4,125 nucleotides of DNA from a virus (Duplodnaviria; Heunggongvirae; Uroviricota; Caudoviricetes): the IMG/VR virus record IMGVR_UViG_2695420487_000011; one strand, given 5' to 3'. Positions 1-4,125 of the stretch are shown piece after piece. The translations under genes were made by a program, and so were the position numbers. The notes below the pieces were generated by a model. It was not told the origin of the DNA. It ran no database searches and worked only from the letters and a program-made list of their open reading frames with translations. The stretch's first letter is position 1. Every line of letters starts with the position of its first letter.

Positions 1-66
1 ACTTTCCAGAACCATACGGACTGCCCGTTGACGGACTTCAGGGGAAAAACGAGTATTTTTAGTCAT
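1..66 (-). CDS. IS3-family transposase OrfA, N-terminal 22 codons only (partial, continues off the window)
   Basis: Minus-strand translation from the ATG at 66 down to 1 gives MTKNTRFSPEVRQRAVRMVLES, a helix-turn-helix N-terminus characteristic of IS629/IS1203/IS3411 OrfA. Too short for the six-frame ORF track to report. Confidence 0.65.
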   Translation of the reverse strand, partial: MTKNTRFSPEVRQRAVRMVLES

Positions 67-120
67 CCTGTTTACCTCTTTCTCAGGAAGTTTAGTCTCC
101 AGGATTCCCGGGGCGGTTCA
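1..120 (-). mobile_element. IS3-family insertion sequence (IS629/IS1203-like), terminal ~120 bp including one inverted-repeat end; element continues beyond the window start
   Basis: Reverse complement of 107-120 reads 5'-TGAACCGCCCCGGG..., the TG-initiated terminus typical of IS3-family ends. About 55 bp inside this end, a minus-strand ATG (complement of 64-66) opens an ORF reading MTKNTRFSPEVRQRAVRMVLES, which I recognise as the N-terminus of IS629/IS1203-type OrfA. Sid-like coding sequence begins immediately at 121. Confidence 0.7.
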
Positions 121-691
121 CGCTGATGACTGGCGCACAGCCTTTCGTGCAGCCGGTGGTGTCCTGAGCGACGAGCTGAAACAGCGCCACATTGAGCGCG
201 TGGCACGCCGGGAGCTGGTACAGGAATATGACAATCTGGCCGTGGTGCTGAATTTTGAACGTGAACGCCTGAAAGGGGCGTGTGACAGCACGGCCACCGC
301 CTACCGGAAGGCACATCATCACCTTCTGAGTCTGTATGCAGAGCATGAGCTGGAACACGCCCTGAATGAAACCTGTGAGGCGCTTGTCCGGGCAATGCAT
401 CTGAGTATCCTGGTACAGGAAAATCCGCTCGCCAACACCACCGGCCATCAGGGCTACGTCGCACCGGAAAAGGCTGTCATGCAGCAGGTGAAATCATCGC
501 TGGAACAGAAAATTAAACAGATGCAAATCAGCCTCACCGGCGAGCCGGTTCTCCGGCTGACCGGACTGTCAGCGGCAACACTCCCGCACATGGATTATGA
601 GGTGGCAGGCACACCGGCACAGCGCAAGGTGTGGCAGGACAAAATAGACCAGCAGGGAGCAGAGCTTAAGGCCAGAGGACTGCTGTCATGA
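121..691 (+). pseudogene. sid: sid-like capsid size determination (external scaffold) gene, 5'-truncated by the IS insertion; 3' portion of about 189 codons retained
   Basis: This frame is open from 32 to the TGA at 689-691, but 1-120 is IS sequence. There is no ATG/GTG/TTG in frame between 121 and the GTG at 200 that the ORF track uses as start (200..691, 163 aa). It sits immediately upstream of, and is translationally coupled to, delta in the conserved P4 order sid-delta-psu. P4 Sid is 244 aa as I recall, so roughly 55 N-terminal codons are missing. Confidence 0.65.
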
Positions 692-1188
692 TTTACTGCC
701 CGTCGTGTGGACATGTTGCTCACACCCGTCGCGCACATTTCATGGACGATGGCACCAAGATAATGATTGCACAGTGCCGGAATATTTATTGCTCTGCGAC
801 ATTTGAAGCGAGTGAAAGCTTTTTCTCTGACAGTAAAGATTCAGGAATGGAATACATTTCAGGCAAACAGAGATACCGCGATTCACTGACGTCGGCCTCC
901 GGCAGTATGAAACGCCCGAAAAGAATGCTTGTTACCGGATATTGTTGTCGGAGATGTAAAGGCCTTGCACTGTCAAGAACATCGCGGCGTCTGTCTCAGG
1001 AAGTCACCGAGCGTTTTTATGTGTGCACGGATCCGGGCTGTGGTCTGGTGTTTAAAACGCTTCAGACCATCACCCGCTTCATTGTCCGCCCGGTCACGCC
1101 GGACGAACTGGCAGAACGCCTGCATGAAAAACAGGAACTGCCGCCAGTACGGTTAAAAACACAATCATATTCGCTGCGTCTGGAATGA
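688..1188 (+). CDS. delta: Delta, P4-type late-gene transcriptional activator (fused tandem Ogr-like zinc-finger domains), 166 aa
   Basis: N-terminus MIYCPSCGHVAHTRR...CRNIYCSATFE is the Ogr/Delta Cys4 zinc-finger signature (CPxCxH...CxNxxCSATF). A second Cys4 unit follows (CCRRCKG...CTDPGCGLVF). The 166-aa length matches P4 Delta. Shine-Dalgarno AGAGGA at 674-679 lies 8 nt upstream, and the start overlaps the sid stop as ATGA (688-691). Confidence 0.92.
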   Translation: MIYCPSCGHVAHTRRAHFMDDGTKIMIAQCRNIYCSATFEASESFFSDSKDSGMEYISGKQRYRDSLTSASGSMKRPKRMLVTGYCCRRCKGLALSRTSRRLSQEVTERFYVCTDPGCGLVFKTLQTITRFIVRPVTPDELAERLHEKQELPPVRLKTQSYSLRLE

Positions 1189-1193
1189 GGGCT

Positions 1194-1209
1194 GCCGGTT
1201 AACACCGGC
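1194..1209 (+). other. Intercistronic stem-loop between delta and psu (GCCGGT-TAAC-ACCGGC)
   Basis: Perfect 6-bp inverted repeat with a 4-nt loop, 6 nt after the delta stop. There is no immediate T-run, so it is not a classical intrinsic terminator; possibly an RNA processing or attenuation structure. Confidence 0.35.
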
Positions 1210-1261
1210 CGTCGCCACACACCGTATTTTTATTCTTCAGCATGATGAGAAAGAGATAACG

Positions 1262-1834
1262 ATGGAAAGCACAGCCTTACAGCAGGCCTTTGACACCTGT
1301 CAGAATAACAAAGCAGCATGGCTGCAACGCAAAAATGAGCTGGCTGCGGCCGAACAGGAATATCTGCGGCTTCTGTCAGGAGAAGGCAGAAACGTCAGTC
1401 GCCTGGACGAATTACGCAATATTATCGAAGTCAGAAAATGGCAGGTGAATCAGGCCGCCGGTCGTTATATTCGTTCGCATGAAGCCGTTCAGCACATCAG
1501 CATCCGCGACCGGCTGAATGATTTTATGCAGCAGCACGGCACAGCACTGGCGGCGGCACTGGCACCGGAGCTGATGGGCTACAGTGATCTGACGGCCATT
1601 GCCCGAAACTGTGCCATACAGCGTGCCACAGATGCCCTGCGTGAAGCCCTCCTGTCCTGGCTTGCGAAGGGTGAAAAAATTAATTATTCCGCACAGGATA
1701 GCGACATTTTAACGACCATCGGATTCAGGCCTGACGCGGCTTCGGTGGATGACAGCCGTGAAAAATTCACCCCTGCGCAGAACATGATTTTTTCGCGTAA
1801 AAGTGCGCAACTGGCATCACGTCAGTCTGTGTAA
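1262..1834 (+). CDS. psu: Psu, polarity suppression protein (Rho antagonist / capsid decoration), 190 aa
   Basis: A 190-aa ORF immediately downstream of delta, matching the P4 sid-delta-psu order and the known length of Psu. A purine-rich SD (GAGAAAGAG) precedes the ATG. The ORF is followed by a hairpin and the cos site, as at the right end of the P4 genome. Confidence 0.8.
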   Translation: MESTALQQAFDTCQNNKAAWLQRKNELAAAEQEYLRLLSGEGRNVSRLDELRNIIEVRKWQVNQAAGRYIRSHEAVQHISIRDRLNDFMQQHGTALAAALAPELMGYSDLTAIARNCAIQRATDALREALLSWLAKGEKINYSAQDSDILTTIGFRPDAASVDDSREKFTPAQNMIFSRKSAQLASRQSV

Positions 1835-1867
1835 AATTCCCCGAAAATCCGCCCGTTTTTACTGAAA

Positions 1868-1898
1868 AAAGCCATGCATCGATAAGGTGCATGGCTTT
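1868..1898. terminator. Hairpin terminator-like structure downstream of psu (11-bp perfect stem, 9-nt loop)
   Basis: AAAGCCATGCA (1868-1878) pairs perfectly with TGCATGGCTTT (1888-1898). On the plus strand the stem is followed by an interrupted T-tract (TTTGCATGCGTTTCCC). On the minus strand it is followed by a clean T6 run (complement of A-run 1865-1870), so it may terminate in both directions. Confidence 0.45.
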
Positions 1899-1925
1899 GC
1901 ATGCGTTTCCCTGCCTCATTTTCTG

Positions 1926-1953
1926 CAGACCGCGCCATTCCCGGCGCGGTCTG
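1926..1953. repeat. Perfect 11-bp inverted repeat (CAGACCGCGCC / GGCGCGGTCTG) with 6-nt spacer in the cos-proximal region
   Basis: Read directly from the sequence. It lies about 45 bp upstream of the cohesive-end sequence; candidate terminase recognition or binding element, or structural element of the cos region. Confidence 0.5.
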
Positions 1954-1998
1954 AGCGTGTCAGTGCAACTGCATTAAAACCGCCCCGCAAAGCGGGCG

Positions 1999-2017
1999 GG
2001 CGAGGCGGGGAAAGCAC
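1999..2017 (+). other. cos site: 19-nt P2/P4-type cohesive-end sequence GGCGAGGCGGGGAAAGCAC
   Basis: Exact match to the 19-nt cohesive-end sequence that I recall as shared by P2, 186 and P4. It is positioned about 165 bp downstream of psu, as at the P4 right end, and is flanked by GC-rich palindromes (CCCGC-AAA-GCGGG at 1984-1996; GGTGCTCG 2033-2040 / CGAGCACC 2061-2068). Confidence 0.75.
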
Positions 2018-2071
2018 TGCGCGCCCCCGGTTGGTGCTCGTTACTAATGTTTTTTGCGCCCGAGCACCGTC

Positions 2072-2099
2072 GGGAAGGGGCTGGGGGGGATAGGGGAGG
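2072..2099 (+). repeat. G-run tract (GGG-aa-GGGG-ct-GGGGGGG-ata-GGGG-a-GG) fitting a G-quadruplex-forming pattern
   Basis: Four or more runs of at least 3 G separated by 2-3 nt, read directly. It sits just upstream of the point where composition changes from GC-rich backbone to AT-rich cargo. Confidence 0.4.
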
Positions 2100-2219
2100 T
2101 GCCTGACGTCGCGCGGTAATGTTGGTAAGTGTGCCGCTGATGGCTTCTGAGGGGAGTGGTAAATAGCCGCCTTTCGACGGTGTAGTGGGGAGAGTATTGC
2201 TTACAAACGTAATGAAATT

Positions 2220-2308
2220 GTTTGAGTAGCTAGGCTACTGCATAGGATTATTTTGTTCTGTTAATATATCCGTTAATATAGATAGATTGATCCAATTGAG
2301 TTTAAGGA
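2220..2308 (+). promoter_or_regulatory. Putative promoter/operator region of the 569-aa ORF
   Basis: AT-rich leader containing a 15-bp palindrome AGTAGC-TAG-GCTACT (2225-2239), a direct repeat GTTAATATA at 2260-2268 and 2272-2280 (12-bp periodicity), candidate -35 TTGTTC (2253-2258) with -10 TATAGA (2277-2282), and SD AAGGA at 2304-2308. Exact promoter elements cannot be fixed by eye. Confidence 0.3.
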
Positions 2309-4018
2309 ATGAGTATGTTTCAGATATCAGCTGGAGTGTTCTTTGATTTAGATAAAATAGAAAAACACGATGGCACATTTGTTTTTTATTCAAATGTTGA
2401 TGTGTCTTTCTCGGTGGAAAACACCTCCCCTCTTTTTAAAGCAAATAAAATAAGTCATGATGGTATAAACTGTTATGTGGTAAACTATACTCTCCTGACC
2501 GAAAAACCAGAACGAATTGAAGCTGGAGTCGTAGTTAGGGCTGGTGATGAGGATTATAGGCAACAATTTATTTTATTATGGGAATTCTATTTTGATTGTG
2601 TGGCTAGAGTAGAAAAAGAATCGGTTAAAAAAATATGTGCATTATCAAATTTTAATAAACATCACTCAAAAATTGCGCTTGAAGTTGCCCCATATTTAGT
2701 GGAGATTAATCGAAGAGTTTCATTTGATGATGTCTCTGGGTTTTCTGCTTTTATTAAAGATGTAGTGAATCTAAATAGATCTGCCTTTAAATCTTTAATG
2801 GCAGCGTTAAAAATAATTAGTGATTCAAAAGAATCATTGTCAACCAACTTTGACCTGACTTATTCCATGTTAGTCTATGCCTTGGAGTCTTTGTCTCAAA
2901 GAAATGATAACTATAAGTCTGATTGGGATGACTACGATCAAAAAACCAGAGGTGAATTAGAGTCTGTATTTGAGCATATGCCTGGTGAGGATGTTTGTAA
3001 AATTAAATCAATACTTATTGAAGGCAAACAATTCAGATTACAAAAAAGGTTCAAAGATTTTATACTGAAAAATCTTGAAGAAAATTATTTCAATGAAACA
3101 GAGAGATATCCAATCCGCTATAGCTTCCTTAGTAGAGCTTTAGATAATTTATACAAAATCAGGTCTTCTTTTGTCCATGAGCTTAAGCCACTTGATGCAA
3201 TGATCTCGAAAGCCTACAATCCTGTTGGTGATTGTCTGGTTCTTTTTGGCGAACCTCACTTCAGTTACTCTGGATTGCTTCGACTTCTTCGCCATGTGAT
3301 AATAAATTTTTGCCGTAAAAACTACAGTCAAAAAAGAGAGTCTGTTAATTGGGTGATGGAAACATCGGGTGTAATGGTTGCAGAGATATCTGCACAATAT
3401 TGGCTCTGGAATGCAGACGGATTTACAGCTAAAAGTATAGCGAAGTGGTTTAGTGAATACCTAAATATGTTAAATTTAGGCGAAGTCACTGATTTGCAGT
3501 CTATCATGGACAAAATTGAGATAATCTATGATCAATCCAAAAAAGAATATAAAAATGGGTTGTTGCATTTTTATTTCTTATATAACTTAATGCATAATGG
3601 AAATAAGGGTGAATGGCTTGAGTTTGCGAACAAGCGAAGTTCTATACTTGTTTGTGATATATATTGGTATTCATGCTCTCCATATTTATATAAATCATTT
3701 ACTAATGTTTCAAATGGTATTGCTGATATAAAAACATTGAGAAACTTTTTGTCTTGTTTTAACGAATATGATAAAAATAAATTTAAGCCAAATCGTTTAA
3801 ATCTCCCTGCAATGACCGAAGTAATTATGTTGGCTTGCGCAGCAAATTCATTCTTCAGAATTGGAATGTATCAAGACTATGTTTTAATGGGCAATAGAGC
3901 GATGAGAGAAATTGCTTCAGTAAAAGATGTATTTTATTATATAAAAGAACGATTAAGTAATTCACAACTTATTGAATTGGACGAGTGCTTGAGATTGTAT
4001 AGAAAAAAGGGGGGCTAA
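2309..4018 (+). CDS. Hypothetical protein, 569 aa, AT-rich foreign gene at the P4 psu/cos-proximal hotspot; candidate anti-phage defence protein with a single HEPN-like R-x4-H motif (R285...H290)
   Basis: Long uninterrupted ORF (1.7 kb) in about 30% GC DNA, where random stop codons would be frequent, so it is very likely real. SD AAGGA at 2304-2308 abuts the ATG at 2309; the in-frame ATG at 2315 has better 6-nt spacing and may be the true start (567 aa). No Walker A, PD-(D/E)xK or zinc-finger motif recognised. Motif KIRSSFVHELK (nt 3161-3178 encode R-S-S-F-V-H) fits the HEPN R-x4-H consensus. Family assignment not possible without a search. Confidence 0.85.
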   Translation: MSMFQISAGVFFDLDKIEKHDGTFVFYSNVDVSFSVENTSPLFKANKISHDGINCYVVNYTLLTEKPERIEAGVVVRAGDEDYRQQFILLWEFYFDCVARVEKESVKKICALSNFNKHHSKIALEVAPYLVEINRRVSFDDVSGFSAFIKDVVNLNRSAFKSLMAALKIISDSKESLSTNFDLTYSMLVYALESLSQRNDNYKSDWDDYDQKTRGELESVFEHMPGEDVCKIKSILIEGKQFRLQKRFKDFILKNLEENYFNETERYPIRYSFLSRALDNLYKIRSSFVHELKPLDAMISKAYNPVGDCLVLFGEPHFSYSGLLRLLRHVIINFCRKNYSQKRESVNWVMETSGVMVAEISAQYWLWNADGFTAKSIAKWFSEYLNMLNLGEVTDLQSIMDKIEIIYDQSKKEYKNGLLHFYFLYNLMHNGNKGEWLEFANKRSSILVCDIYWYSCSPYLYKSFTNVSNGIADIKTLRNFLSCFNEYDKNKFKPNRLNLPAMTEVIMLACAANSFFRIGMYQDYVLMGNRAMREIASVKDVFYYIKERLSNSQLIELDECLRLYRKKGG

Positions 4019-4125
4019 CCCATAAGCGCTAACTTAAGGGTTGTGGTATTACGCCTGATATGATTTAACGTGCCGATGAATTACTCTCACGATAACTGGT
4101 CAGCAATTCTGGCCCATATTGGTAA

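Follow-up and report, generated by a model that had tools for sequence, protein, structure and literature searches.

The 4,125-nucleotide stretch of DNA considered here, referred to as the window (IMG/VR virus record IMGVR_UViG_2695420487_000011), carries part of a P4-like satellite together with one large open reading frame (ORF), which is an exchangeable single-gene cargo in the psu-cos-int hotspot of that satellite. The product of this gene very probably has a HEPN fold, its R-x4-H motif being under catalytic constraint. The account favoured here, with moderate confidence, is that of a single-chain, three-domain HEPN ribonuclease, acting as an abortive-infection-type immune protein and carried as P4 hotspot cargo. 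A function in defence or conflict in general is probable, while its specific sensor and its specific target are guesses, each held at somewhat under an even chance. The gene is a plausible but unproven anti-phage candidate, and it is not new, as will be seen below from the supplementary tables in which it has already appeared.

Regarding the gene itself, the ORF is uninterrupted on the plus strand from 2309 to 4018, as stated in a preliminary description of this DNA, and comes to 569 amino acids when counted from the first ATG. Translation nevertheless starts almost certainly at the second ATG (2315), for a protein of 567 residues, because the RefSeq entry WP_000486482.1 (labelled 'hypothetical protein') has this length, 31 of the 33 homologues in an alignment covering 18-88% identity (A1) begin with M-[L/F]-Q, the remaining two having an N-terminal extension, and the putative ribosome-binding site AAGGA at 2304-2308, as read from the sequence, is rightly spaced only for this ATG.

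The AlphaFold2 monomer model obtained from the family alignment is confident (mean pLDDT 86.4, pTM 0.68) and has three parts: a beta-rich N-terminal domain, a central helical domain and a C-terminal alpha-solenoid, the last reaching from residue ~372 to ~563 in the model (Table 1). The central domain bears the predicted catalytic residues R283 and H288, which are invariant in A1 together with S284, R155, Y183, E191-S192-L193, W204, R245 and Y280. In a second alignment of 66 more diverse representatives, sharing 18-37% identity (A3), no exception is seen at W204, Y280, R283 and S284, and H288 is conserved in at least 90%. In the model, this domain is a helical bundle superimposable on solved HEPN domains. 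Thus, by motif and predicted fold together, the protein is placed in the HEPN superfamily, but not in ApeA, DARNA, HepS or LA2681, and the statement of the preliminary description that it has no obvious nuclease signature and no motif that could be placed does not hold. Since the putative catalytic R-x4-H is strictly constrained, the gene is evidently not decaying cargo. The C-terminal domain, in turn, is similar to TPR proteins, among them the peptide receptors PlcR and Rap.

These features bear directly on an alternative reading, in which the ORF is an orphan of a wholly uncharacterised type, has no enzymatic domain and represents a new system recently imported from a low-GC source. Such a reading can draw on the RefSeq label and on searches that came back empty: Pfam and NCBIfam return nothing for the protein, a profile search of PDB sequences found nothing and whole-chain Foldseek against the PDB gave nothing significant. 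These empty sequence searches do not show the absence of a domain, because motif and fold point to HEPN. With the invariant R-x4-H in a HEPN fold, a TPR-like tail, 1,204 cluster representatives, a publication of the gene as 'HEPN-TPR' and a GC content below that of the host in all seven hosts compared, the orphan reading is very improbable and is already refuted on orphan status, on the missing nuclease signature and on novelty.

A word-indexed search gave 70 homologues, of which the closest are 100% identical and belong to a cluster of 344 sequences; those with 50-90% identity are from Enterobacter, Pantoea, Klebsiella and Pectobacterium, those at about 40% from Vibrio, Aeromonas, Photobacterium, Ferrimonas and Vreelandella, and the most distant, with 21-26% identity, from Lacrimispora and Cellulomonas. 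When 1.84 billion cluster representatives were searched exhaustively with a profile, 1,204 of them matched at E<=1e-3, including 477 at E<=1e-30, and these clusters (about 1,200 at 50% identity) span Proteobacteria, Firmicutes and Actinobacteria. Among the best 150 of the 1,204 matches, nearly all are 555-625 amino acids long and aligned end to end, which means that the three domains are conserved together, as one protein.

The conservation differs from domain to domain. The HEPN domain has a mean identity to the query of 0.32, with 16 of its 205 columns at least 90% conserved, and the TPR-like tail has a mean identity of 0.18, with only one of 185 columns reaching that level, being the least conserved domain of the protein. 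This pattern would fit a conserved effector joined to a diversifying sensor. At the other end of the chain, all A1 sequences share Q3 and N27, and in A3 both residues are kept at a level of 90% or more. The first four residues, M-[L/F]-Q-I (2315-2326), are near-invariant across the family, which is unusual for the start of a protein; judged from the alignments, they suggest a structural or regulatory role, and they may be an autoinhibitory element or plug.

As for the base composition, the ORF is indeed AT-rich relative to the satellite backbone, as previously described (GC of 0.330 vs 0.543 for window positions 120-2100), and the sliding GC profile falls from about 0.6 to about 0.3 near position ~2200. 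The interpretation given to this contrast, namely a recent acquisition from a low-GC donor, is not borne out. In 7 of the 7 hosts compared (loci L001, L002, L006, L007, L009, L011 and L013), the homologous gene lies 4-18 GC points under its flanks, the deficit being only ~4 points in Vibrio; one of these loci is a 63%-GC contig, and the deficit persists at 26-40% protein identity. Being AT-rich is thus characteristic of the whole family and does not point to a recent jump from a single donor.

Lone HEPN proteins cutting tRNA in the anticodon loop after a phage-derived cue are already known in ApeA, DARNA and HepS, and the window protein shares features with each of them. ApeA was described by Gao et al. 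2020, and its mechanism has since been reported (bioRxiv 10.64898/2026.01.26.701840). It is likewise a single polypeptide of ~570-580 amino acids, having a HEPN ribonuclease effector and non-catalytic domains, and it is also found in P4 hotspots (HEPN_Apea entries of Rousset Table S1A, PMC9122126). Moreover, the only significant sequence-model match of the window protein is to the PADLOC model named Cas13-ApeA (E=7.3e-6), which also matches 13 of the 33 close homologues but none of 65 diverse representatives; apart from a marginal CSD_V match, the PADLOC scan of the protein gave no others. By eye only, the invariant A-L-E-S-L helix resembles 'WIALESLIP' and 'WIAIESLIP' in two ApeA variants.

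Besides these similarities, there are differences in architecture. The HEPN domain of ApeA is C-terminal (335-583, with R521 or R502), whereas that of the window protein is central (R283 of 567) and is followed by a TPR-like domain of ~195 amino acids, unlike ApeA. In addition, the N-terminal and Mid domains of ApeA are tightly packed and predominantly helical, in contrast to the beta-rich N-domain and the TPR-like tail found here. The Pfam model PF18739 (HEPN_Apea) leaves the window protein below its gathering threshold, without a match, and is weak in 6 of the 33 homologues (best E=0.011). The hhalign comparison of A1 with two ApeA variants, made with their first 399 amino acids and hence with most of the HEPN domain missing, gave a probability below 1%. 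Identity with ApeA, as suggested by the PADLOC match and by the length, is ruled out by the position of the motif and by the architecture. A doughnut-shaped decamer or dodecamer having a dinucleotide-binding pocket is a further hallmark of ApeA. Finally, the phenotype of ApeA is proven, while that of the window protein is not.

DARNA, or PD-T7-3, is also a single-protein HEPN abortive-infection system of the E. coli pangenome, with an effector and a separate sensing domain, and it cleaves tRNA upon a phage-dependent cue (bioRxiv 10.64898/2026.02.22.705581). Its HEPN domain, however, is N-terminal (R117-x4-H122) and its C-terminal domain binds single-stranded DNA, compared to a motif at residues 283-288 in the window protein, on which the PADLOC PD-T7-3 model gave no match; identity with DARNA is ruled out by motif position and architecture. 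HepS is a prophage-borne lone HEPN protein without a partner gene, an anticodon nuclease activated by directly binding a phage protein (Nature 2026, PMC13043305). It has fewer than 250 amino acids, with R100-H105 and no extra domains, whereas the window protein has 567 residues and two additional domains, and so size and architecture exclude this identity as well. HEPN families fused to TPR repeats, such as LA2681 and C6orf70, were described by Anantharaman et al. 2013 (PMC3710099); these combine an R-x4-6-H HEPN domain with TPR repeats and occur in conflict-related contexts. No Pfam HEPN model, LA2681 included, matches the window protein even at E<=1, however, and membership in these named families is not supported for lack of such a match. 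A central HEPN domain placed between a beta-rich domain and a TPR-like tail matches none of the architectures of ApeA, DARNA and HepS.

By analogy with ApeA, DARNA and HepS, the ribonuclease is proposed to be held latent until infection. The repeat domain, perhaps with the N-terminal domain, would then bind an infection-specific ligand, which could be a phage protein, a peptide or a nucleic-acid product, and the HEPN domains would pair or rearrange into a composite active site; metal-independent endoribonuclease activity of such a site in a dimer is typical of the HEPN superfamily. Cellular RNA would be cut, most likely in tRNA anticodon loops if the analogy holds, so that translation and phage production would stop and the infection would be aborted. 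In this scheme, the cutting of RNA, sensing by the repeat domain, the identity of the target and the protective effect are all inferred.

The genomic surroundings are consistent with such a role. In all eleven contexts of a hand-picked sample, the gene stands alone with no recurrent partner; homologues from other bacteria are likewise single genes of defence islands, prophages and P4-like hotspots. Such hotspots are occupied at ssrA in E. coli, in Pectobacterium and in a third element described below. In Klebsiella, the homologue lies at the accessory end of a prophage, after a tail-fibre invertase and beside UmuD-like and SRAP genes, and in a Lacrimispora prophage (L011:6406-11678, L012) it is located between terL and portal. 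In Vibrio navarrensis, it directly follows a Gabija-like OLD-TOPRIM/UvrD pair among transposases; in an integrase-bounded island of Aeromonas, it is ~1 kb from SIR2 and HerA/DUF87; in Photobacterium, it adjoins Abi_2 and a reverse transcriptase (RT) fragment; and in Cellulomonas, it is found between a 1,013-amino-acid helicase and DUF5677, with a weak AbiV-like HEPN gene nearby. Seven related loci are present in IMG/VR viral contigs. The third P4-like element, located at ssrA in a sequence of an ENA metagenome (L025:3451-9695) and bearing three Psu-domain ORFs, has a double cargo in its hotspot, consisting of an AIPR (abortive infection) gene and the HEPN-TPR homologue directly after it. In Lacrimispora, a 215-amino-acid gene lies directly downstream of the homologue, being the only context with a possible partner.

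The placement of the gene as a single-gene cargo of the P4 psu-cos-int hotspot was rightly recognised before, as psu and cos lie upstream in the window and the integrase gene comes next in both E. coli ATCC 8739 and Pectobacterium. Backbone sequence turns up in thousands of E. coli records, yet just 15 of 5,426 complete E. coli genomes combine it with this cargo, and the backbone stretch 120-2024 carries other cargo, such as Kiwa, in many genomes; this is the behaviour expected of a variable hotspot. The same figures weigh on the idea that the protein is a housekeeping or satellite life-cycle enzyme processing RNA, for instance P4 or helper transcripts, with no immune role. The gene does lie close to cos and to the late operon, as such an enzyme might, yet it is missing from nearly all complete E. 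coli genomes in spite of a widespread P4-like backbone, its slot holds unrelated cargo elsewhere, and homologues are found outside satellites in unrelated islands and prophages, making this idea barely credible. In E. coli XJ34 and XJ6-3, where the match covers query positions 2086-4021, the cargo gene and the integrase are kept beside ypjA, and sid, delta, psu and cos are unmatched, which suggests a satellite decay that spared the cargo.

The gene was already listed by Rousset et al. 2022 (Cell Host Microbe 30:740, PMC9122126), and its description as novel has to be dropped. Table S1A of that study gives 'NC_010468, hypothetical, WP_000486482' among the P4-encoded loci, and Table S2B, of 'additional tested systems', gives pFR83 as 'HEPN-TPR', locus P4, one gene, from E. 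coli ATCC 8739. It is the same gene at the same P4 psu-cos-int locus as in the window, although the ATCC 8739 satellite is without the IS3-family end in sid and the IS421 end seen here. The printed 399 amino acids of the pFR83 protein are identical to the window ORF, and the full ATCC 8739 protein differs only at codon 418 (3566-3568), with H here and Y there. Residue 418 varies between H, S and Y among homologues, so the H418Y difference is unlikely to explain any phenotype. The pFR83 insert starts at window position 1746 and so takes in 2025-2314, its upstream region being essentially identical to that of the window. As published, HEPN-TPR is a line in a supplementary table, unaccompanied by a positive phenotype or by any analysis of structure, phylogeny or mechanism. 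Furthermore, WP_000486482.1 of an ECOR genome carries the label 'Predicted novel defense gene' in DefensePredictor (Science 2026, PMC13092281), its mean log-odds of 7.09 exceeding the strict cut-off of 4. The accession is not in Table S6 of cloned transcription units of that study, and it was therefore apparently not cloned or tested there. Neither the accession nor the name 'HEPN-TPR' was found in the main texts of papers, the gene surfacing only in supplementary tables, and it is not in the supplements of a 2026 preprint on P4/P2 hotspots, which tested other unknown cargo.

Several points weigh against the reading as an immune ribonuclease, and the main one is the published assay. Nineteen P4 systems were cloned with their native promoters in a low-copy pSC101 vector in MG1655 and challenged with eight coliphages, robust resistance being obtained with 7 of the 19 (Table S2A, PMC9122126). 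The Methods describe the entries of Table S2B, HEPN-TPR included, as without detected activity, and all P4-encoded systems were also tried in E. coli C with P2 and four P2-like phages, TIR-NLR alone being protective (PMC9122126). The result is thus negative for 13 phages (8 coliphages and 5 P2-like phages). Regarding the domain assignment, no curated HEPN model of Pfam or NCBIfam is significant on the protein, no Pfam family appears even at E<=1, and the 66 diverse representatives gave no HEPN matches against Pfam and PADLOC, with only sporadic unrelated domains (DUF2934 in three, CBM_20 in one). The RNA target and the trigger are drawn purely from analogy, as would be any oligomeric state. 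Finally, the sample of contexts carries no enrichment statistic, and 2 of the 11 are not obviously related to defence, one lying after an RND pump and the other in an uncertain Ferrimonas island.

The negative assay is tempered by the small panel, by the narrow spectra of related systems, since ApeA variants protect only against particular phage groups (bioRxiv 10.64898/2026.01.26.701840), and by the precedent of PARIS-1, which was active only from an induced pTet promoter (PMC9122126). The proposal of the preliminary description to plate coliphages on K-12 carrying the gene under its native promoter had in effect been carried out beforehand, on the H418Y allele, and the absence of protection that would have spoken against defence was observed in part, for a panel of 13 phages only. 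As a defence candidate, then, the gene stays reasonable by its context and by the DefensePredictor value, and no activity has been detected on those 13 phages.

A related explanation is that a functional gene is not expressed, or has no effect, in E. coli K-12 when left to its native promoter, and may protect only when induced, either because of xenogeneic silencing of 33%-GC DNA or because of a need for transcription induced by the satellite or its helper. If so, the negative assay would say little. Taken by itself this is rather improbable, and it qualifies the immune-ribonuclease account rather than competing with it. The GC content is 27-41% over the ORF and the adjoining upstream stretch, and it may be speculated that a gene of 33% GC is poorly expressed in K-12 from its own leader, which showed no promoter consensus; silencing by H-NS, however, is deduced from the composition alone. 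The promoter scan gave 7 sites against 7.6 expected by chance, with no good plus-strand sigma-70 consensus just upstream of the ORF. Regarding the own upstream regulatory region formerly proposed, there is a gap of 480 nt between psu and the ORF, and a hairpin after psu, but no such consensus. The orientation of the gene is that of the delta-activated sid-delta-psu late operon, and PARIS-1 needed induction (PMC9122126), both of which agree with a gene that is silent until induced.

Read-through from the late operon is opposed by the strong hairpin found 34 nt past the psu stop codon, with an A-run before it and a U-containing tail after it. This hairpin is likely the intrinsic terminator of the sid-delta-psu operon, and if it does terminate that operon, the cargo gene would be transcribed separately. 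It was not picked up by the consensus terminator scan, probably because the post-stem tail UUGCAUGC is without the required T run. Within the AT-rich leader, the 9-mer GTTAATATA is present twice (2260-2268 and 2272-2280), 12 bp apart and ~35-55 nt before the start codon; this direct repeat may be an operator or promoter element, although two short copies could be due to chance.

That none of the 8 coliphages and 5 P2-like phages was detectably affected can also be taken to mean that the gene serves in conflicts not aimed at lytic phages, as a stand-alone toxin or addiction factor stabilising the satellite or prophage, or as a weapon against competing mobile elements. These competitors would be other satellites, plasmids or temperate phages at induction, and ordinary plaque assays would then be blank. 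It also agrees with this explanation that the gene is always found on or beside mobile elements. The neighbours in chromosomal islands, on the other hand, are classical anti-phage systems. The explanation is further opposed by the lack of a conserved partner gene across contexts and of any RNA-antitoxin-like repeat array or Rfam family nearby, and a lone constitutive toxin would kill, yet the native-promoter clone was kept in MG1655. For these reasons, a conflict role of this kind is unlikely. Near the gene, there are no tandem repeats at a score of at least 30, the two-copy 9-mer upstream being the only repetition, and no Rfam match at E<=1; an RNA antitoxin is therefore unlikely, and a type III toxin-antitoxin or AbiF-like HEPN system with an RNA antitoxin was rejected.

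The preferred account remains that of a HEPN ribonuclease of the abortive-infection type, whose coordinates are collected in Table 1 together with those of the satellite backbone and the flanking insertion sequences (IS).

Table 1. Features of the 4,125-nucleotide window, from left to right
Feature	Position	Strand	Basis or remark
IS3-family IS terminus	1..119	-	orfA of the transposase runs leftwards from 66; the IS removes the 5' end of sid
sid, 3' part (capsid size determination), IS-truncated	120..691	+	Annotation under matches in complete genomes
delta (Ogr/Delta zinc-finger late-gene activator)	688..1188	+	Pfam Ogr_Delta 5.7e-22, two stretches; RefSeq annotation
psu (polarity suppression / capsid decoration protein)	1262..1834	+	Pfam Psu 1.6e-88; DNA 98.9% identical to P4 psu
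13-bp perfect hairpin after psu	1868..1898	+	Minimum free energy -21.5 kcal/mol, z = -4.37, 0/200 shuffles as good
cos cohesive-end sequence GGCGAGGCGGGGAAAGCAC	1999..2017	.	P4 alignment ends at 1998
Cargo-specific upstream region	2025..2314	+	GC-rich to ~2200, then AT-rich (sequence, composition)
HEPN-TPR gene	2315..4018	+	567 amino acids and stop; one residue off WP_000486482 (H418 vs Y418)
N-terminal domain, five predicted beta strands and helices	2315..2644 (aa 1-110)	+	AlphaFold2 model
Central helical HEPN domain	2720..3334 (aa ~136-340)	+	Motif and predicted fold
Predicted catalytic motif R283-S-S-F-V-H288 (HEPN R-x4-H)	3161..3178	+	Conservation in A1 and A3
C-terminal alpha-solenoid, TPR-like domain	3428..4015 (aa ~372-567)	+	Presumed sensor
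IS421 (IS4 family) terminus	4019..4125	.	Inserted right after the ORF stop codon

At the left end, 3,538 E. coli genomes contain a sequence that is 100% identical to positions 1-125 and annotated as 'IS3 family transposase', and the alignment with intact P4-like elements begins at 120. The sid match is annotated as Sid, 'glycoprotein 3' or hypothetical in complete genomes. In ATCC 8739, the sid coding sequence (CDS) begins 163 nt ahead of the point aligned to window position 120, and in the window its frame is interrupted upstream. Towards the cargo, the alignment with linear P4 (NC_001609) ends at the last base of P4, 11624, which corresponds to window position 1998; this right genome end places the start of the cos cohesive end at 1999. 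The 19-mer GGCGAGGCGGGGAAAGCAC found there is presumably the P2/P4 cohesive end. P4-like elements with a different cargo can be aligned as far as 2023-2025, the common backbone thus ending near 2024.

At the right end, 2,191 genomes have a sequence 100% identical to the stretch 4019-4125, annotated there as 'IS4-like element IS421 family transposase'. In ATCC 8739, a P4-type integrase CDS overlaps the end of the ORF by 4 bp and is followed by ssrA, and the 3' end of int occupies the site where IS421 is inserted in the window. The two IS junctions occur together in no complete E. coli genome, nor in a 100%-identical IMG/VR contig (L015). With an IS in sid and the IS421 end, the source satellite looks immobilised, and its cargo gene is intact.

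Since the locus, the gene, the HEPN-TPR domain call and the status as a candidate were already known, the finding has little weight as a discovery. What the present analysis adds is a sharper case for testing the gene again: a large family conserved end to end with a constrained R-x4-H, a C-terminal repeat domain that evolves fastest, as an immune sensor would, and classical defence neighbours across phyla. It also calls for caution, as 'no Pfam hit' does not mean that a protein has no recognisable domain, and negatives held in supplementary tables are easily rediscovered as novelties. It is conceivable, though somewhat doubtful, that the HEPN-TPR family is a genuine and widespread anti-phage system, missed because it is silent or narrowly triggered, in which the TPR-like tail senses a phage protein or peptide. 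If true, the protein would be an NTPase-free, single-chain pattern-recognition receptor, with an architecture distinct from those of ApeA, DARNA and HepS. Its validation would add another architecture to the single-protein HEPN immune proteins of the anticodon-nuclease type, and would provide a simple setting in which a TPR sensor would be coupled to a ribonuclease directly, without a STAND NTPase.

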